Below the pieces are notes generated by a model. That model had not been told where the DNA came from, made no database searches, and worked only from the letters and a program-made list of their open reading frames with translations. Below are positions 1 to 8,633 of a stretch of DNA of 64,000 nt, one piece after another. The DNA is from an uncultured Sporobacter sp. (GTDB taxonomy: Bacteria; Bacillota; Clostridia; Oscillospirales; Oscillospiraceae). Where the stretch lies: the NCBI GenBank assembly GCA_963675425.1, contig OY776214.1, forward strand, positions 2,316,978-2,380,977, written 5' to 3'. Position 1 is the first letter of the stretch. Every line of letters starts with the position of its first letter. A program made the translations under genes and the position numbers.

Positions 1-1516
1 CATGCAGGAGCTGATCGAGAATTTCTATATCAAGATATGGGACCTCAACAAGCTCAGAAATCACATTTTAATCAAAACCTTTGGCAACGGCGGCATCGGC
101 GGCCCGGCGCTCACCGTGGGCGGTATCAAAAAAGACGGAGGCGACGGCACCAACGAGCTGACCTTCATGGTGCTTGACGCCCACGCCCACGTACGCATTC
201 CCGCGCCGTGGCTGGCCGTGCGGCTGCACGCCAACACGCCCTGGGAGCTGAAGGTCAAGACGGCCAATCTTATCCGCATGGGCACCGGCGAACCGAAGAT
301 ATTCAACGACGATGTCGCCATCCCCAGCATGCTCACCTCCAATGTCGATCTGTTCGATGCCCGGGATTATCAGGTCGTCGGCTGCGTGGAGCCCGACGTT
401 TCCGGCAAATCCTACGGCTGGAAGGACTGCGGCCATATGAACATTGCACGCGTTTTGGAGCTGGCGATCAACGACGGACGCTGCTTCAACTGCTCGGATC
501 AGTGCCCGCGCTGGGAAAAATGCGCCGGTATCGGCGGGCAATTGGGCCTTAAAACCGGCAGCCTTGCCGACTTTACGTCCTTTGAGCAGGTGCTTGAGGC
601 GTATGACAAGCAGATGGAATACTGGTGCGACCGGCAGGTGGCGCTGTTAAATGCCGTGGATCTGGCGCATCAGGCGCTGCGCCCGCTGCCGTACCTGTCC
701 ATCCTTATGGACGGCTGCATAGAGAACGGGAAAGACGTGACGATGGGCGGCACGAAATACAACTTTACCGGTCCTCAGGGCGTTGGCATCGGCACGGCAG
801 GCGACGGGCTGGCGACCATCAAGCAGCTTGTGTTTGATGAAAAGCGCATCACGGGCCGAGAACTCCTTGACGCCGCCATCGCCAACTGGGAAGGGCACGA
901 GGCCCTGTACGCCTACGTCAACTCCGACCGGGTCCACCACTACGGCAACGACGACGATTATGCCGACCGGCTCACGAAATTCGCCATGGATACCTGGTGC
1001 AAGCATATCGAGCACCGACCCAACGCCCACGGCGGCTTCTTCCAGCCCGGCGCGTACTCCGTCACCGTCAATGTCGCCCACGGGCAGAACCAGTGGGCTT
1101 CCGTCGAGGGCCGCAAAGCCTTTGAGCCGGTTTCGGACTGCATGGGGGCCGTCCATACGAAATGCTGTTCCCATGATATCAAGGGGCCCATCGCCATCTG
1201 TAAGTCTGTGACGAAGCTGGACCATGCACGCGCCACCAACGGCACGCTGCTGAACTGGAAGTTCTCGCCCTCCACGCTGGTCGGCGAGACCGGGCGCGAC
1301 AATTTCATCGCGCTCATGGACGAGTACGTCCACCGTAAGGGCATGCACAGCCAGTTCACCGTGGCCAATCGGGAGACGCTTGTGGCCGCGCAGAAAGACC
1401 CGGACGAATACCGGGACCTGCTCGTCCGCGTCGCCGGGTACAGCGCGTACTTCGTAGAGCTCAACAAGGCCCTGCAAGACGATATTATCGGCCGTACGGA
1501 ATTATCGTTCGATTAA
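1..1516 (+). CDS. Glycyl radical enzyme (PFL2/GD/PD-like eliminase class), 5'-truncated by window edge
   Basis: Cys-loop YQVVGCVEP (nt ~368-394) and C-terminal glycyl radical motif LLVRVAGYSAYF; LLNWKF and MHSQFTV motifs; activase downstream. The ATG at 2 is probably an internal Met. Confidence 0.95.
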   Translation, partial: MQELIENFYIKIWDLNKLRNHILIKTFGNGGIGGPALTVGGIKKDGGDGTNELTFMVLDAHAHVRIPAPWLAVRLHANTPWELKVKTANLIRMGTGEPKIFNDDVAIPSMLTSNVDLFDARDYQVVGCVEPDVSGKSYGWKDCGHMNIARVLELAINDGRCFNCSDQCPRWEKCAGIGGQLGLKTGSLADFTSFEQVLEAYDKQMEYWCDRQVALLNAVDLAHQALRPLPYLSILMDGCIENGKDVTMGGTKYNFTGPQGVGIGTAGDGLATIKQLVFDEKRITGRELLDAAIANWEGHEALYAYVNSDRVHHYGNDDDYADRLTKFAMDTWCKHIEHRPNAHGGFFQPGAYSVTVNVAHGQNQWASVEGRKAFEPVSDCMGAVHTKCCSHDIKGPIAICKSVTKLDHARATNGTLLNWKFSPSTLVGETGRDNFIALMDEYVHRKGMHSQFTVANRETLVAAQKDPDEYRDLLVRVAGYSAYFVELNKALQDDIIGRTELSFD

Positions 1517-1519
1517 AAA

Positions 1520-1539
1520 GGGGCGGCTTATGCCGCCCT
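1520..1539. repeat. 20-bp palindromic direct repeat (target-site duplication or terminator hairpin), copy 1; copy 2 at 1762-1781
   Basis: gggcggc-ttat-gccgccc hairpin present twice, directly after the GRE stop codon. Confidence 0.85.
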
Positions 1540-1761
1540 CAGACTGTCGAAAAAAGCCACGGATGCGGCTTTTTCGACAAATAAAGGGTTCTCGCGCTGA
1601 GGCGCTCGCAAAGTAATGCTTTTCGGAAGTGAATGCCTCAAAGCATTGAAATTAAACCATTTTCGCCGATGAGACCAGACAACTCGCCGTCATCGCCGAA
1701 AATTAAATCGCACGGCGATTGGACGCACAAAAGAAGGACAAAAGACTTTTTCGACAAGCTG
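1540..1761. mobile_element. MITE-like non-autonomous element (IS1182-like ends)
   Basis: Imperfect terminal inverted repeats cagactgtcgaaaaa (1540-1554) and tttttcgacaagctg (1747-1761), flanked by a perfect 20-bp direct repeat ggggcggcttatgccgccct at 1520-1539 and 1762-1781; no transposase. Confidence 0.7.
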
Positions 1762-1966
1762 GGGGCGGCTTATGCCGCCCTGATTTCATATCCCGCTCTC
1801 TGCCCAATTAAGGTATAGGGCTTCAGTTCTGCCAAGCCTGACATGGGTAACAGATTGTTCGGAGACATGGATCACAGTTTAAAGTGTTTCCGGCCTTGGG
1901 CTCAAGCTTGGCCTGGGCAATCCTATATCAACAGGGTAGGGGACCGGTATAAACGGAGGTTGCCTC

Positions 1967-2956
1967 TTGCTGTACAGAAACGCCGCCGGCGAGCCGTGCG
2001 CGCTCGTCAGCAATATTCAGAAATATACGATCCACGACGGTCCGGGCATCCGCACGGAGATTTTCTTCAAAGGATGTCCGCTTCGCTGCCTGTGGTGCTC
2101 CAATCCCGAAACGCTCGATACGAAGCCGCGTATTGGCGTTTATCCGACAAAGTGCCTGACGCTTACAAAATGCGGTGCATGCGTTAAAGCCTGTCCGGGA
2201 AATGGCACGCCGCTTGAATTTGAAAACGGTGTTTTAAAGGCTGCAAATATGACCGATGCCTGCAAGGGCTGTTTCAAATGTACCGACGTCTGTCCGCCCC
2301 GGGCGCTCAAGCAGTGGGGCGAGTGGATGAGCCTTCCTGAGCTGATGAAAGTCATTGCCGAGGACCGGAGCTTTTATCAGAAGACGGGCGGCGGCGTTAC
2401 GCTCAGCGGCGGGGAAGTGCTTCTGCAATGGGAAATCGCGGCGATGCTGCTGGAGGAATGCCATAAAGAGCATATCAATACATGTGTCGAGTCGGCTCTT
2501 TGTTGCCCGCCGGAGCACATGGAAACCGTCTGGCAGCATACGGACCTTGTCATTACCGATATTAAGCATATGGACCCGCTGAAACACCGGGAATACACCG
2601 GTGTTGACAACAAGCTGATCCTTGAAAATATCAAACGCACCGTTGAGCTCGGCAAGAAGCTCGTGATCCGGACGCCCGTCGTCGCGGGGTATAACGATGA
2701 TCTGGAAAACATACGCGCCACCGGCGCGTTTATCCGGGATGAGCTGGGTGGCAAAATCGTCCAGTATCAGCTTCTGCCTTATCGCAGGCTGGGCATGGAA
2801 AAATATGATTCACTCAACCTGCCATACCCGATGGGGGATTACGTAATGCCCGAGCGCGCCGTCTGGGAAGAGAATCTTCTGAAACTGACCGACATCCTCG
2901 TCTCGGAGTATGGCCTACCCGCCGTCGCTGGCTCCGGCAGCAAGCTGGAATTTTGA
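1967..2956 (+). CDS. Glycyl radical enzyme activating enzyme (radical SAM, ferredoxin-like insert)
   Basis: IQKYTIHDGPGIRTEIFFKGCPLRCLWCSNPE; Cys-rich insert (CLTLTKCGACVKACP ... CKGCFKCTDVCP); GGGVTLSGGE; TTG start with GGAGG RBS. Confidence 0.95.
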   Translation: MLYRNAAGEPCALVSNIQKYTIHDGPGIRTEIFFKGCPLRCLWCSNPETLDTKPRIGVYPTKCLTLTKCGACVKACPGNGTPLEFENGVLKAANMTDACKGCFKCTDVCPPRALKQWGEWMSLPELMKVIAEDRSFYQKTGGGVTLSGGEVLLQWEIAAMLLEECHKEHINTCVESALCCPPEHMETVWQHTDLVITDIKHMDPLKHREYTGVDNKLILENIKRTVELGKKLVIRTPVVAGYNDDLENIRATGAFIRDELGGKIVQYQLLPYRRLGMEKYDSLNLPYPMGDYVMPERAVWEENLLKLTDILVSEYGLPAVAGSGSKLEF

Positions 2957-3057
2957 ATATGTAAAATACCCATCTTTATCTGAAGCGCAGTGATCTGAGA
3001 TGTAGAGACTTTTGGCTAAAGCCAAAAATGAAGGTCTTTCACACATATATTTATGAT

Positions 3058-3104
3058 AAAAACGGCCGCTATCTCTTGTATAAAGTGATTGCGGCCGTTT
3101 TTTT
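3058..3104. terminator. Probable bidirectional intrinsic terminator
   Basis: aaaacggccgc...gcggccgttttttt between the convergent activase and DUF169 genes. Confidence 0.65.
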
Positions 3105-3146
3105 ATTACGTTGTCTGCAGTCGGAGGTTATTTCTATATTACGCAG

Positions 3147-3920
3147 TCAAATACATTGGGGATCCTCTTCCAGCTCCTGAGCCAGATCAGCAAAAACCTG
3201 TTTGTCAAATTCAATATACTTTTCCCGCCCCAGGGTATAAGCTTTGGGGACCCAGTTCATTTCGTTAAGGTTTTGGGTTATTTCAGGAATTTTTTGGTAG
3301 GGTATGGTTACCAATATCATTCCTTCCGGGAAACACTCCCTTGACTTGGCGCCGAAAGCCAAGCCGGTTACGAGATAATTGATCTTCCCGCTCTTATAGG
3401 GATAAACCAGCTGCCAGGAACAGTTTAGGACAGGCGTTGATTTGGATTCGACGATATCCCCGCTGGAATAGGATATGGCCCGGACAAGAACTTCCGCCTG
3501 GCTGGGTTTGGCGGTAAGGATGAGAAGGTCGGGTTCAAATGTCAGCTGATCCAGAGGAGCAAAAACCACATAATTCATAAGGCCTTTTTTAAACAGGTAA
3601 AATTGGTCGTATAGTCTCCCGTTGGCGCGTCCTTCCTGAAAAATGTCAAGTTTTTCGCCGAGTTGCCCGTATTCCGCAAAAGGCGGCAGGTCTTCCCAGC
3701 CCATGGCTAATTTGCCCGCGCAGTCCTCATTTTCTTTGGTAATATAAAACGGCTTGTCGCTCTCCTGAGCTTTCCAGAACATTTCGCATAAGCCGGCGGT
3801 CCCTTTCATTTTTTCAATTCCTTCGGGTTCGTGCAATAAAAATTTTACGCCTATCGGCGGCCGTTCAAAACCGAATTTATTGTAAATGGACAGGTCTTGT
3901 TTTAATGCTCTCATTTTCAT
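3147..3920 (-). CDS. DUF169-family protein
   Basis: FERPPIGVKF, LCEMFWKAQ, EDCAGKLAMG, PDLLIL and CSW motifs typical of DUF169; start placed at ATG 3920 rather than the ORF-track 3965. Confidence 0.75.
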   Translation of the reverse strand: MKMRALKQDLSIYNKFGFERPPIGVKFLLHEPEGIEKMKGTAGLCEMFWKAQESDKPFYITKENEDCAGKLAMGWEDLPPFAEYGQLGEKLDIFQEGRANGRLYDQFYLFKKGLMNYVVFAPLDQLTFEPDLLILTAKPSQAEVLVRAISYSSGDIVESKSTPVLNCSWQLVYPYKSGKINYLVTGLAFGAKSRECFPEGMILVTIPYQKIPEITQNLNEMNWVPKAYTLGREKYIEFDKQVFADLAQELEEDPQCI

Positions 3921-4071
3921 CGTTATAATAATTCCTTTCGAATCGTTCAAGGCACAAAACGGCATGAACCCTATTGTCCTTGAGCGTTATTTACTTTAAT
4001 AATTAAACAAGATAACAAGAATTCTGAACGATAAGTTGTTGATTAACCAGTCTGCAGATACGATCGATAGG

Positions 4072-4764
4072 TTACATTGGCCTTAATATTACACGGGCAG
4101 GAGCAGCATCCCCATCGTGAACTTTAAGCGGCAGACAGATCATTTCGTAGTTTCCGGGTTTTACGTCGTATAAGTCGAGCGATTCCATGATCCAGACGCC
4201 GCCGTTAAATAGGGTAACATGACCAAACACGATATCATCAAAATCAGGACCGGCTATTGCAATATAATCGATACCGGCAATAAGAGTTTTTTTCTCAACC
4301 AGGTAGAGTGCGGCATCCGGAGCAACTGCGACAAAATTATCAAACCAAGTTTTTTCCTTGGACCTGTAATAAGTAGAATTTATTGTCTTGAACAGAAGAC
4401 GTTCGCCGGTTTTAATATCATGGCGTTCAAGCTCTTTACGCCTGATTGCAGTCTTGTCCTCAATTTCGATAACACGGGCCGGCCCGATAACAACATCCAT
4501 CGGTATCTCATCGATACTGGTCCGTTTGGGAACCATTTCTTTAGAAAAATGGCGGGGAGCGTCAATATGTGTGCCGGTGTGAGGATTCACCGTCAGTTGA
4601 ACCAGATAATCCATATGGTGGTGCTTATCCGGATGGCGAACCCAATCGACACGGGGATCCAATGGATCCATCGGATTAAAATGCATGCCGTTGAAAATAG
4701 GGTAGGTCACATCGATCCACTCGGATGTGGTATTGCTGATGTCAATGGGTTTTTCCGCAGCCAA
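4072..4764 (-). CDS. Cyclase-family metal-dependent hydrolase (kynurenine formamidase/isatin hydrolase-like)
   Basis: Canonical HTGTHIDAPRH motif, GIDY, downstream His (FGHVTL) and IMESL Glu, GDAAPARVIL C-terminus. Confidence 0.9.
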   Translation of the reverse strand: MAAEKPIDISNTTSEWIDVTYPIFNGMHFNPMDPLDPRVDWVRHPDKHHHMDYLVQLTVNPHTGTHIDAPRHFSKEMVPKRTSIDEIPMDVVIGPARVIEIEDKTAIRRKELERHDIKTGERLLFKTINSTYYRSKEKTWFDNFVAVAPDAALYLVEKKTLIAGIDYIAIAGPDFDDIVFGHVTLFNGGVWIMESLDLYDVKPGNYEMICLPLKVHDGDAAPARVILRPM

Positions 4765-4806
4765 TATTCATACCTCCTAACAATTTATTATTGATAATGA
4801 AATATT

Positions 4807-5496
4807 CTATTTTAACGGTCTCAAGACGGCCCGGGCGGGAGCGGCGTCTCCGTCCAGAATTTTTATGGGCAGGCAGAATATTTCATACTGCCCCGGTTCG
4901 ACAGAGTACAAGTCAATAGCTCCCAGGAGCCAGACGCCGCTATCAAGAAGTGTTGCGCGAACCTTATCAAAGGGGTTTAGTTCCTTTTCGCCGAAGGTAA
5001 CAGTACTGTAGGGACCGAGACCTAAATAATCGAAGCCTACGACTGATACTTTTTTTTCTGCGAGAAAGCGTGCGGCTTCAAGTGTGAGGTAACAATAATA
5101 ATCAACAAAATGCTCCATTTTATAGTATGAAGAGTTAATGGTTTTAAAAAGAATCCGTTCACCCGGCTGAATATTGTGAGTTTCAAGCTCCTCAGGGTTT
5201 ATCGACACGCTGTCTTTGATTTCTATCACACGTGCCGGGCCGATAATGGCGGTCAGAGGCATCTTGTCAACACTGGTCTTGTTCGGATCAAAATGACGCG
5301 CGGTTTCGACATGGGTACCGTTATGACCGTTTATACAATATTGATACATGTAACACGCACTGCCTATGGCGGGGTCTATCACCCAGTCAAGGTGCGGCGG
5401 TATGTTGTCAGTCGGCAGATACTGCATATTGGGGCTGAGCGCATATGTAATATCTATCCAATCGGTGGAATCGCTGTTTGTTAGCATCTCTTTCAA
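4807..5496 (-). CDS. Cyclase-family paralog with degenerate metal site
   Basis: HNGTHVETARH (D>E, P>A); the equivalents of the second-metal His and Glu appear replaced (KVRATLL, LLGAID); same GDAAPARAVL tail. Confidence 0.85.
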   Translation of the reverse strand: MKEMLTNSDSTDWIDITYALSPNMQYLPTDNIPPHLDWVIDPAIGSACYMYQYCINGHNGTHVETARHFDPNKTSVDKMPLTAIIGPARVIEIKDSVSINPEELETHNIQPGERILFKTINSSYYKMEHFVDYYCYLTLEAARFLAEKKVSVVGFDYLGLGPYSTVTFGEKELNPFDKVRATLLDSGVWLLGAIDLYSVEPGQYEIFCLPIKILDGDAAPARAVLRPLK

Positions 5497-5551
5497 AATA
5501 AACCATCCATTCTTAATTTGCTAATAGTGAGATTAATTCATTTTTATACAG

Positions 5552-6850
5552 TTAAGCTAGGAAGGTCACAATCTGGGGAAATGCGACTAGTATTGCAGCA
5601 CACACAATGATTGCTATTAAAAATGGCCATATTCCTTTAAAAATATCTTCGAGAGGTACTTCTTCTTTAACGATGTCTTTTACGACATAAACATTCATTC
5701 CTACCGGAGGTGTAATAATCCCCATACCTTGTATCAGTAGTATTACTACTCCGAACCACATGGGGTCATATCCCAAAACGTTCACAACTACAGGGTAGAA
5801 AACCGGAATGGTAAGTAACACTAAAGCGGGAATGTCGATAAAACAACCTAAAACCAGGTAGACAAATAATATTGCTGCCATAATTATAAAACGTGGTAAT
5901 GATAATACACTGACAGCATTGGCTAAGGAGGTGGGAAGGTTGCTAAGCGCCATGAAGCGCCCAAAAACTATCGCTCCGGCAATTAAAAGAAGGATCATTG
6001 CAACAGAGCGGGCTGTCGAATATAGAGATCTTTTAATACCGTCCCATTTCAAATCGCCTGACAGCAACGTTACAATAAGTACCCCGAATGCACCTACGGC
6101 GCCGGCTTCAGTGGGGGTAAACCAACCGGCGAACAATCCGCCAAGGGACAGAATAAAAATAGCAACTATTTGCCAAAGGCCGCCTGTCAGAGATTTAAAT
6201 CTCTCTTTCCAGTTTGATTTTTCAGTTCTGGGAGCCAGGGCCGGATTGCGTCTAACTAAAATATAAATAACGATTATATTAAGACACAGGAGAATTATCC
6301 CGGGAATTACGGAGCATTTAAACAAAGTTTTAATTGAATTTTGCGTTGCAATACCGTATAACATTATGACGGTACTCGGAGGTATTAAAACTCCCAGGAT
6401 TCCTCCGCAAGCTACACTCGATGTTGCCAGCTTCATATCATAGTTGTATTTTTTCATCTCGGGTATGGCGATGGAGCCAATTGTGGCCGTTGCAGCCAAA
6501 ACCGATCCGCAGATTGCCCCGAAAACAGCACTGGCGCATTGAGCAGCCATAGCCAGGCCGCCCCGCCGATGCCCAATCCATTTGTTAGCCGTATCAAAAA
6601 ACTTACTGCCGATACCTGATTCATATGCAAGGTAACCCATCCATATATACATGGGCACCACAATATAATTGTAATTAGAAAACTCTTGAAATAAATTCAA
6701 AGAAACCGTTTCAAAAGCAACTTGAGGCGAAGTATATATCCACACGCCGATAAAGCCTATTAAAAGCATTGAAAATGAAATAGGCATACCCATCAACATG
6801 ACAACAAGAAAAACCAACATCAGCAACAGGCCTATTATTTCCGGGCTCAT
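5552..6850 (-). CDS. dctM: TRAP transporter large permease
   Basis: 432 aa hydrophobic protein; GGILGVLIPPS, TPTEAGAVG and ITPPVGMNVYV motifs. Confidence 0.95.
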   Translation of the reverse strand: MSPEIIGLLLMLVFLVVMLMGMPISFSMLLIGFIGVWIYTSPQVAFETVSLNLFQEFSNYNYIVVPMYIWMGYLAYESGIGSKFFDTANKWIGHRRGGLAMAAQCASAVFGAICGSVLAATATIGSIAIPEMKKYNYDMKLATSSVACGGILGVLIPPSTVIMLYGIATQNSIKTLFKCSVIPGIILLCLNIIVIYILVRRNPALAPRTEKSNWKERFKSLTGGLWQIVAIFILSLGGLFAGWFTPTEAGAVGAFGVLIVTLLSGDLKWDGIKRSLYSTARSVAMILLLIAGAIVFGRFMALSNLPTSLANAVSVLSLPRFIIMAAILFVYLVLGCFIDIPALVLLTIPVFYPVVVNVLGYDPMWFGVVILLIQGMGIITPPVGMNVYVVKDIVKEEVPLEDIFKGIWPFLIAIIVCAAILVAFPQIVTFLA

Positions 6851-7356
6851 TTTTCTTCACTTCCTTTCCCAAATTCATTTATAATTTTCATTAAAATAGC
6901 CAGAGCCAGGATCAATATACCTATTGCTAAGACATAATAAAGAGGGTAATGCGGCGTTGATGTTGTTAAAGTAGTCTTTCCGCTCAGCTTCACATTTTTA
7001 GCATAGCATGACAGAATAAACCAGCCAATTGCCCCAAACATTATCGTGCTGATTACATTAAGAATTATCCTAACCAGTTTTTGAACTATTACAGGAAATT
7101 TATCCATAATAAAAGTAATATTAACGTGGCCGTCGGTTAGATAGCAGTGGGCGAGAGACAAGCTAATTGCTGATATAAACAGCATCAACAAAATGTCATA
7201 AACACCCCTGATTGGAGTATTAAAAAAAGCCCGTAAAGCAACATTAACGACTATCAAAGCCATCATTGCAGCGATTAATATCTCACTTGCAATATTTAGA
7301 ACTGAACATAGTTTTTCTATAGTTTTGTTGATTAATTTCATATTAAACCAGCTCAC
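6847..7356 (-). CDS. dctQ: TRAP transporter small permease
   Basis: Four TM segments, GHVNITF motif, between dctP and dctM. Confidence 0.9.
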   Translation of the reverse strand: MSWFNMKLINKTIEKLCSVLNIASEILIAAMMALIVVNVALRAFFNTPIRGVYDILLMLFISAISLSLAHCYLTDGHVNITFIMDKFPVIVQKLVRIILNVISTIMFGAIGWFILSCYAKNVKLSGKTTLTTSTPHYPLYYVLAIGILILALAILMKIINEFGKGSEEK

Positions 7357-7387
7357 CTTTGATTTCCCAATATTATTTTTATTTCAT

Positions 7388-7419
7388 CGCACCCGAAGAT
7401 AATACCCCGGGTGCGATGA
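7388..7419. terminator. Stem-loop between dctP and dctQ (mRNA stabiliser or attenuator)
   Basis: tcatcgcaccc...gggtgcgatga 11-bp inverted repeat. Confidence 0.45.
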
Positions 7420-7439
7420 TCTTGTTTATTTTTATTTTT

Positions 7440-8633
7440 TTATTGATACTGAGCGATTAACGCGTCTATTCTTCCTCTCAAATCGGCAGAATAGTCTGCG
7501 AACTCTGTGTTATATTGGTCTACCAATTCTCCGATCTTTGCTAAAGCTTCGGTTCCCGGTAAGCCTTGTTCGTTTAAGAAATCTTCATATGATTGTCGTG
7601 AAGAGGACAACGCTTCTGTAATTTTTCCGTATTCTCCGTCGGAGAGCGTCGTTACTTTGAGGCCGTTCTGCAGGCCGAATTCCAGACTATCACAATATAT
7701 GTCGTCAAAAGCGGTGGACACATCTTCAAAATGCTGTTCATTAACCTCACGGATAATATTTTGGAGATCTTCAGGCAAACTGTTCCATGCATCTTTATTC
7801 ATGCAGACATTTGGTGAAGCGTTATACAAACAGGGCACTTCTACCATGTAATCGACGACTTCATATAAATTCCAGCCGACTAAAGGTTCGGTATTACCTA
7901 AAACTCCGTCTATGGTGTTTTTGGAGAGAGCTTCATAGGCTTCCGCCATTGTCATGGCTACAGGTGTTGCACCCAATGCAGCTACAGCATCGGAGGCCGA
8001 GCTATCGCACCTAATCTGCAAGCCTTTTAAATCTGCTAAGCTTTCTATCGGTTTATTAGTAAAAATGCAGCCGGGCGCCGGGGAAAAGATAAACATGAAT
8101 TCTAAATCAGAATCTACTACTTCAGGAAATGCTTTGACGTAGTCATTATTTACATTAATGGCAACTCTGCCGTTAGTCCATTCAAAACCGGGAACCGCCA
8201 GAGCATTAAACAGCGGAAGTTCGCCCGGACAATAATTATTGATAACTAAGCCTGCATCGGCAAGGCCACTGCCAATTCCTTGAAGCGCGCTGTCGGCTGC
8301 TAATAATGTTCCACCGTAATACATTGTAAATTGTACCCGCCCATTGGTGGCTTCCTCAACTTTTTCCACCCAAGGATCCATAAAGTTTTCAACCATTGGG
8401 TGCCCGTCGGGCATTGGGGAGGCAAAAGTAAAGACGTAAGTTTCCGAAGAATTTTCTTTGCCAGAAGCAGCGCCTTCACTGGAAGCAGCGTCCCCGCCGG
8501 AAGCAGCGTCCCCGCCGGAATCAGCGCCTTCTGCTGCATTATTGTTGGCACATCCGGAGAATAACATAAAAGTGGTGAGAATCAGGGCCAGGGCTACCAA
8601 AATTGAAATACCTTTAAAATTTTTAATCTTCAA
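7440..8633 (-). CDS. dctP: TRAP substrate-binding lipoprotein
   Basis: Lipobox FSGC; low-complexity linker; YYGGTL, DLKGLQIR, LGATPVAMTMAEAYEALSKNTIDG motifs; TTG start with GAGGAGG RBS. Confidence 0.93.
   Translation of the reverse strand: MKIKNFKGISILVALALILTTFMLFSGCANNNAAEGADSGGDAASGGDAASSEGAASGKENSSETYVFTFASPMPDGHPMVENFMDPWVEKVEEATNGRVQFTMYYGGTLLAADSALQGIGSGLADAGLVINNYCPGELPLFNALAVPGFEWTNGRVAINVNNDYVKAFPEVVDSDLEFMFIFSPAPGCIFTNKPIESLADLKGLQIRCDSSASDAVAALGATPVAMTMAEAYEALSKNTIDGVLGNTEPLVGWNLYEVVDYMVEVPCLYNASPNVCMNKDAWNSLPEDLQNIIREVNEQHFEDVSTAFDDIYCDSLEFGLQNGLKVTTLSDGEYGKITEALSSSRQSYEDFLNEQGLPGTEALAKIGELVDQYNTEFADYSADLRGRIDALIAQYQ
8461..8531. repeat. 18-bp coding tandem repeat (GGDAAS linker) in dctP
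   Basis: ggaagcagcgtccccgcc twice exactly, plus degenerate flanking copies. Confidence 0.8.

Follow-up and report, generated by a model that had tools for sequence, protein, structure and literature searches.

Whether a glycyl radical enzyme (GRE) can carry a metal site within its own catalytic chain is the question raised by the first gene of this stretch of DNA. The window, by which we mean the whole stretch of 64,000 nucleotides analysed here (G000:C1:2316978-2380977, in the single-contig 4.6 Mb genome of an uncultured Sporobacter sp.), begins inside a GRE gene. A first-pass annotation, which had only the C-terminal 504 residues encoded there, noted four cysteines spaced CX2CX3CX5C between the Cys loop and the QLGLKTG motif, proposing that they form a built-in Zn or Fe-S site and that this site would define a new GRE subclass. 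The cysteines are indeed where they were said to be (residues 525-538), and the metal site is a plausible idea in the light of the sequence comparisons presented below; the new subclass is not borne out. The reading that we favour, with some reserve, is that the complete protein (P0001) is an eliminase-type GRE and a paralog of HpfG, with a self-contained accessory M(Cys)4 module that would bind one metal, likely a structural Zn2+. What appears to be new is an optional Cys4 module, undescribed in the literature searched, within an otherwise ordinary eliminase-type GRE.

P0001 is 868 residues long (L009:10888-13494). Its gene starts 1091 nt 5' of window position 1 (G000:C1:2315887 = L009:10888), and the window misses its first 364 codons. 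The protein matches the PFL-like (PF02901, 5e-107) and Gly_radical (PF01228, 6e-29) families of Pfam, and its AlphaFold2 model, made with a 106-row alignment as input, has an overall pLDDT of 94.4 and superposes on glycerol dehydratase (GD; 1r8w) with a TM score of 0.97 and an rmsd of 1.6 A. The features that mark the GRE superfamily are all present, namely the PFL-like barrel, an RVxGY-type domain (its G843 being invariant in alignment A2), the Cys-loop cysteine and an adjoining radical SAM activase. The best solved relatives are GD, which is B12-independent (PDB 1R8W/1R9D), and the GRE 1,2-propanediol dehydratase PD (5I2A, 9RCO), with a best E value of 1.7e-186 (1r8w) and about 39% identity. 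Alignment to 1r8w pairs H219 of P0001 with GD H164, H336/S337 with H281/S282 and D506 with D447, residues that GD and PD share with P0001 along with the Cys-loop pair (C433 and E435 in GD); both differ from it in having a short Cys-free linker and a shorter ADGVSPxxGxD loop. G491, C492, V493 and E494 do not vary in A2, and neither do H219 and D506, as expected of GRE 1,2-eliminases of the GD/PD/HpfG/CutC type, for which the CXE motif on the Cys loop is the hallmark (PMC13450708). These residues make P0001 most likely a glycyl radical 1,2-eliminase of the dehydratase type, and its substrate is most likely a small hydroxylated compound. The nearest relatives are from Sporobacter (91% and 88% identity), and the clade also reaches Oscillospiraceae, Papillibacter, Desulfatiglans, Pelotomaculum, Dehalobacter and Syntrophomonas.

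The Cys4 motif occupies 14 residues, 30 residues past the Cys loop and just ahead of QLGLKTG. In HMMER alignments, the motif and its flanks form an insertion of 13-15 residues relative to GD (1r8w), PD (9rco and 5i2a) and PflD, none of these solved enzymes carrying it, in agreement with the short Cys-free linker that the first-pass annotation gave for GD/PD/HypD-type GREs. The short linker is also the rule in the wider family: 113 of 150 representative GRE clusters, drawn from a library of 1.84 billion proteins, have 22 residues where P0001 spans 35, and two more distant representatives (P0125 and P0126, about 40% identity) carry this motif or one very similar to it. The density of cysteines in a single sequence proves little, since P0001 has 19 Cys in 868 residues and four of them fall within 14 residues in 617 of 20000 shuffled versions (3%); it is comparative conservation that carries weight.

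That conservation is strong. Among the best 120 homologs (60-99% identity) and the loci from two genome scans, the exact CX2CX3CX5C spacing is found in 189 distinct homologs at 47-99% identity, and two further homologs have CX2CX7CX5C. The insert is thus kept in close and distant homologs alike with its Cys invariant, so that the metal-site idea stands on the point, conservation among close homologs, where the first-pass annotation had exposed it. The positions between the cysteines are variable and mostly polar (N/G/E/H/D, G/S, P/E/S/A/D, E/A/D/S/K), with the exception of R534 (97% conserved) and W/Y535 (96%); G/S529 and G/A539 are also kept. In 93 distinct DNA versions, all four Cys codons show synonymous TGC/TGT changes and zero replacements, and the insert is under purifying selection. 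The motif reads as two short knuckles of conserved cysteines, C525-x-x-C528-(G/S) and C532-P-R-(W/Y)-x-x-C538-(G/A). In the AlphaFold2 model, the two 10-residue blocks that hold it have pLDDT values of 89-93, and residues 535-537 form a short helical turn.

The manner in which the insert is lost is as telling as the manner in which it is kept. Loss is all-or-none, no homolog with three of the four Cys having been found, and it takes two forms: a deletion of 13 residues, which at times spares the first Cys (GRCIETG, GKCYNSD, GRCMEDAPDAP), and, in P0051, a segment of unchanged length without any of the four Cys. In a FastTree phylogeny of 106 proteins, from which the insert columns were excluded, the insert-bearing superclade (94 rows) is monophyletic with respect to the GD/PD-like outgroups (support 100), and its earliest branches are insert-positive. 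The trait changes 10 times on this tree, at least 9 of these changes being forced by well-supported branches, and most are probably losses, because remnants of the first Cys persist. The insert therefore appears, on this phylogeny, to be ancestral to a large clade that includes HpfG. An insert-positive pair formed by Hungatella and Faecalicatena is nested within insert-negative HpfG on weak branches (support 85-88), and there the tree is compatible with retention as well as with re-acquisition.

Presence of the insert does not follow specificity. Subclades of the superclade differ in their pocket motifs (VVGCVEPD, VVGCVEID, GIGCVEPC and the HpfG-type VVGCVEIS), and at least four of these subclades, each with its own type of pocket, have members with the insert. 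It is absent from close relatives of P0001, namely P0040, which lies inside the 20-row clade of P0001, and P0051, in the next larger clade. Several losses are found among strict anaerobes (Brotonthovivens, Eubacterium, Lachnospiraceae, Coriobacteriaceae and Acidaminobacter). The Sporobacter genome itself holds an unusually large set of 17 PFL2-type GRE paralogs, several of them arranged as tandem pairs (for example at C1:633391-638513, 1616181-1623753 and 3205840-3218738). Only the window copy has the Cys insert; the 16 others carry loops without Cys there, several of them of very different lengths, and the insertion point is thereby marked as an indel-tolerant loop, presumably a solvent-exposed one. 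Across 8 loss lineages, no remote alignment column changes recurrently with insert loss, and only the adjacent L545 co-varies with it.

The same plus/minus pattern is found among orthologs of a characterised enzyme. HpfG, the nearest characterised family to P0001 (NCBIfam NF048009; about 46-49% identity to HpfG orthologs), is described as a (2S)-2,3-dihydroxypropanesulfonate (DHPS) dehydratase (Liu et al. 2020, PNAS, as cited in PMC11489063 and PMC13450708). Five true orthologs, including those of Hungatella, Enterococcus and Faecalicatena, score 1521-1720 bits on NF048009. The insert is present in the HpfG of Hungatella hathewayi DSM 13479 (1720 bits), where it also has the spacing CX2CX3CX5C (GGRCLDCGPHCMRWETCG), as well as in those of Faecalicatena faecalis (1702) and a Faecalibacterium metagenome-assembled genome (1640). 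It is absent from the HpfG of Enterococcus florum (1703 bits) and, by alignment, from entries of E. pallens, E. hulanensis, Collinsella, Lachnospiraceae M18-1 and Epulonipiscium. The H. hathewayi gene belongs to a canonical cluster (L178:6997-14108) composed of hpfH (591 bits), hpfG, an open reading frame for a membrane-type protein of 261 residues, Fe-ADH and a DASS transporter.

Taken together, the invariance of the cysteines amid polar residues that vary, the purifying selection, the all-or-none mode of loss, the repeated dispensability and the location at an indel hotspot make up the signature expected of metal ligands. From this pattern we infer the binding of a metal, its identity, the exposure of the site at the surface and its dispensability. 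The Cys-loop hairpin is followed by a helix, and the Cys4 module sits in the loop that comes next, where the thiolates of C525, C528, C532 and C538 would bind a single ion, foremost a structural Zn2+ or else a rubredoxin-type Fe; zinc is the most likely metal, with rubredoxin-type Fe or a small Fe-S cluster as the alternative. The bound metal would rigidify a loop that would otherwise be floppy and exposed to solvent. The absence of co-varying remote columns points to an autonomous peripheral module, and the existence of HpfG equivalogs at 1640-1720 bits both with and without the insert points to a dispensable one, as does the HpfG pathway of E. gilvus, which is functional in vivo (PMC11489063). 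The other Enterococcus orthologs and the length of the NCBIfam model suggest that the characterised HpfG proteins of Klebsiella and E. gilvus lack the insert. Radical catalysis would not need the module, whose benefit may be greater stability or a surface for docking. Such knuckles have well-known parallels: CxxCG and CPxCG are signatures of rubredoxin and zinc-ribbon knuckles, and the C+/C- ribosomal proteins and the lid of adenylate kinase are textbook cases of small accessory metal sites.

Several observations weigh against a zinc knuckle. The second pair of cysteines has the spacing Cx5C rather than the canonical CxxC, and the strong conservation of R534 and W535 suggests something more than a passive staple. 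Searches with three 26-residue versions of the insert gave no match in Pfam at E values up to 10, and in the PDB only unrelated matches at E values of 1 or more. Most hosts are strict anaerobes, in which an Fe or Fe-S site at the protein surface would be stable, and short Cys4 motifs can bind clusters, as do CX2CXCX5C in SoxR ([2Fe-2S]) and CX6CX2CX5C in endonuclease III ([4Fe-4S]).

A first alternative is that the insert is a redox-active iron centre within the catalytic subunit, whether rubredoxin-type Fe(Cys)4 or a [2Fe-2S] or [4Fe-4S] cluster. It would match in cis the Fe-S or Fe small subunits that HPAD, BSS and MASS have, and it might quench or protect the radical or exchange electrons with the activase. 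Four invariant ligands within 14 residues, the SoxR and endonuclease III motifs just mentioned and the preponderance of strict anaerobes among the hosts (Sporobacter, Desulfatiglans, Pelotomaculum, Syntrophomonas) would suit such a centre, as would the lack of the insert in the HpfG of the aerotolerant Enterococcus. Moreover, there are GRE systems in which separate subunits bring in Fe-S or Fe modules whose function is enigmatic, the rubredoxin-like delta subunit of MASS among them (PMC13450708). However, repeated loss of the insert in strict anaerobes and among true HpfG orthologs makes a redox centre needed for catalysis unlikely, the variable polar residues between the ligands would give a cluster little hydrophobic shielding, and ferredoxin, HiPIP and rubredoxin profiles give no match to the segment. 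We consider an iron centre of this kind possible but doubtful, and its functional equivalence to the unexplained Fe-S/Fe small subunits of HPAD, BSS and MASS slightly more doubtful still.

It is also conceivable that the four cysteines bind no metal at all and act either as a redox switch between thiol and disulfide or as a patch of thiols that scavenges radicals, or that the segment is a structured loop for docking the activase or another partner, with R534 and W535 as the functional residues. These two residues are nearly as conserved as the cysteines, docking of the activase is required for GRE activation, and the Pfam and PDB searches recognised no metal motif, zinc-finger profiles included. 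Invariance of four Cys and their all-or-none loss nevertheless typify a set of ligands and are not required of a docking loop, the cytoplasm of a strict anaerobe is an unlikely place for disulfides, and close relatives with and without the insert both retain an adjoining activase in the loci examined. An insert without metal seems improbable to us on these grounds. As for the new GRE subclass with a chemistry dependent on the built-in site, its prospects are very poor indeed: the clade of P0001 does have its own pocket motifs, unlike those of HpfG, GD and PD, and no characterised member, but the insert is patchy within an existing clade, occurring under at least four types of pocket and in a bona fide HpfG of a canonical hpfH-hpfG-Fe-ADH cluster while missing from P0040 and P0051, so that its presence does not track specificity.

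A second cysteine-rich patch had been noted in place of the usual SPxxGxD region. The sequence is present (D743-D756), and it does replace that loop, being 4 residues longer than the ADGVSPxxGxD loop of GD-type enzymes; what it lacks is a conserved cluster of cysteines. The longer loop is common to the whole superclade, HpfG included (SDNMGPVHTDAGSHD), with D743 invariant and H749, T750, H755 and D756 conserved throughout. C744 is a Cys in 203 of 241 relatives (84%), HpfG and some others having N-M or N-C, while at C752-C753 only 106 of 241 (44%) have CC, the others showing AG, GG, CA, RG, LG, WG and further combinations. The CC pair shows no link to presence of the insert and is also seen in insert-free relatives. 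We rejected this patch as a metal site because of the variable CC pair; it is probably a family-specific active-site or specificity loop within the substrate pocket.

P0001 is a distant, HpfG-like paralog of HpfG; the CXE Cys loop is common to the two, and so is the longer loop of the form xVHTxxxSHD. It reaches 1013 bits on NF048009, for which the cut-off is 1000. The activase encoded beside it scores 364 bits on the HpfH model and does not reach the cut-off of 500, as against 591 bits for hpfH of H. hathewayi. Neither hpfD (Fe-ADH) nor hpfE (exporter) was found among the neighbours of P0001. The pocket motifs of P0001 and HpfG differ too (VEPD vs VEI(S/D); WKDCGHMN vs WHDAAYVN; SDCMGAVHT vs SDNMGPVHT), those of P0001's own clade being YGWKDCGHMN, FFADAY and SDCMGAVHT. 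Because scores, activase, gene context and pocket motifs all differ from those of HpfG, the substrate is probably not DHPS. We accordingly rejected the NCBIfam name for P0001, and an automatic label of (2S)-3-sulfopropanediol dehydratase would be an over-call. The cut-off of NF048009 falls within the range of the sister clade as a whole (950-1036 bits), where naming is decided by a few bits. Mis-annotation of this clade as DHPS dehydratase is likely, and the naming of its members from Sporobacter, Oscillospiraceae, Desulfatiglans, Pelotomaculum and Syntrophomonas, which sit at the edge of the HpfG model, calls for caution.

Features discussed in the text, with positions in the window and the basis of each assignment
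Feature	Window position	Strand	Basis
3' part of the GRE gene, codons 365-868 and stop	1..1516 (ORF frame 2..1516)	+	lists of open reading frames (ORFs), Pfam, AlphaFold
Cys loop G491-C492-V493-E494-P495, CXE motif of GRE 1,2-eliminases	380..394	+	alignment to GD C433/E435
Putative M(Cys)4 knuckle, C525 to C538 (CFNCSDQCPRWEKC)	482..523	+	translation, alignments, conservation
Second Cys patch, D743 to D756 (DCMGAVHTKCCSHD; D743-CMGAVHTKCCSHD-756)	1136..1177	+	alignments
Glycyl radical motif RVAGYS, residues 840-845 (radical glycine G843)	1427..1444	+	sequence, Pfam Gly_radical
GC-rich terminator-like hairpin, then palindromic element of about 60 nt	1520..1600		sequence, genome repeat count
GRE-activating radical SAM enzyme with ferredoxin-like insert, cognate activase	1967..2956	+	Pfam; TIGR02494 322 bits (cut-off 174)

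When gene neighbourhoods were clustered for 37 loci whose GRE has 60% identity or more, the activase was the sole widely conserved neighbour (28 of 37 loci). Directly past the GRE stop codon (window 1517-1600), the GC-rich hairpin is followed by a palindrome of about 60 nt (CUGUCGAAAAAAGCC...GGCUUUUUCGACA) present in more than 40 copies on both strands throughout the genome, a REP-like intergenic repeat; an Rfam search of window positions 1-4000 gave no match, this repeat included. On the minus strand, window positions 3147-8633 hold an operon convergent on the GRE-activase pair, coding for a TRAP transporter (DctP, DctQ, DctM), two paralogs of the cyclase family (PF04199) and a protein of family DUF169. 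Relatives do not keep this set beside their GRE, only DctM recurring (3 of 37 loci), and a functional link of the operon to the GRE is therefore doubtful.

A different context is found in six Sporobacter/Oscillospiraceae loci (L011:5839-8770; L014:3275-8781; L013, L016, L017, L021), where the GRE ortholog follows genes for MtnA (methylthioribose-1-P isomerase, 405 bits), a class II aldolase/MtnB-like protein and a FAH-family hydrolase. Five of the six also hold a second GRE paralog (about 53% identity) in which the Cys4 insert is present, a LysR gene taking its place in L011. This arrangement, which was not found beside the window's own GRE copy, suggests that a GRE eliminase is coupled there to a DHAP-shunt-like route for 5-deoxy- or 5-methylthio-pentoses (5-substituted pentoses); we found no paper linking GREs to such a route.

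The Cys4 module is then a conserved but repeatedly lost feature of the HpfG-like clade, located inside the catalytic chain. Nature provides HpfG orthologs with it (Hungatella) and without it (Enterococcus), which makes its role easy to test. Should it prove to be a structural zinc site only, it would amount to a modest structural footnote. Should it hold redox-active iron, the matched HpfG pair would allow the role of such a site to be tested with regard to radical lifetime, quenching, activase docking and oxygen tolerance.

Comparison with known systems places this module apart from those already described. To our knowledge, no metal cofactor is known in PFL-type catalytic chains. Literature searches for zinc, Cys-rich inserts and metal sites in GRE catalytic subunits turned up only papers on class III ribonucleotide reductase, and full-text searches found none on a Cys-rich insert in PFL-type GREs. 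The class III ribonucleotide reductase NrdD has a Zn(Cys)4 site and is the precedent for a structural Cys4 site in a chain of the GRE superfamily; that site lies in the C-terminal glycyl radical domain, whereas the motif of P0001 comes after the Cys loop, in the middle of the barrel. In the retroviral CCHC zinc knuckle (CX2CX4HX4C) the ligands are at positions 1, 4, 9 and 14, and the candidate ligands of P0001, at positions 1, 4, 8 and 14, span the same 14 residues; CxxC(G/S) is present, with Cx5C as the second pair.

Within the GREs proper, the first-pass annotation took large subunits generally to lack metal clusters and cited the separate Fe-S small subunit of HPA decarboxylase. A 2026 review of GREs describes metal cofactors for small subunits alone, those of HPAD, BSS and MASS; it does not mention zinc, and it states that HpfG has no structure to date (PMC13450708). 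The gamma subunit of HPAD and the beta and gamma subunits of BSS and MASS carry HiPIP-like [4Fe-4S] sites, the delta subunit of MASS a rubredoxin-like Fe(Cys)4 site, and the roles of these metals are termed enigmatic, at least some of them looking structural (PMC13450708). As for a separate HiPIP-like polypeptide beside P0001, no conserved small open reading frame was found, the gap between GRE and activase being occupied by the repeat element. The likeness of P0001 to these systems is that of a Cys4 site, here a candidate predicted from sequence, attached to a GRE. The difference is that theirs are separate polypeptides with a fold of their own, in decarboxylases and X-succinate synthases, whereas that of P0001 takes up just 14 residues of the catalytic chain itself, in an enzyme of the eliminase type.

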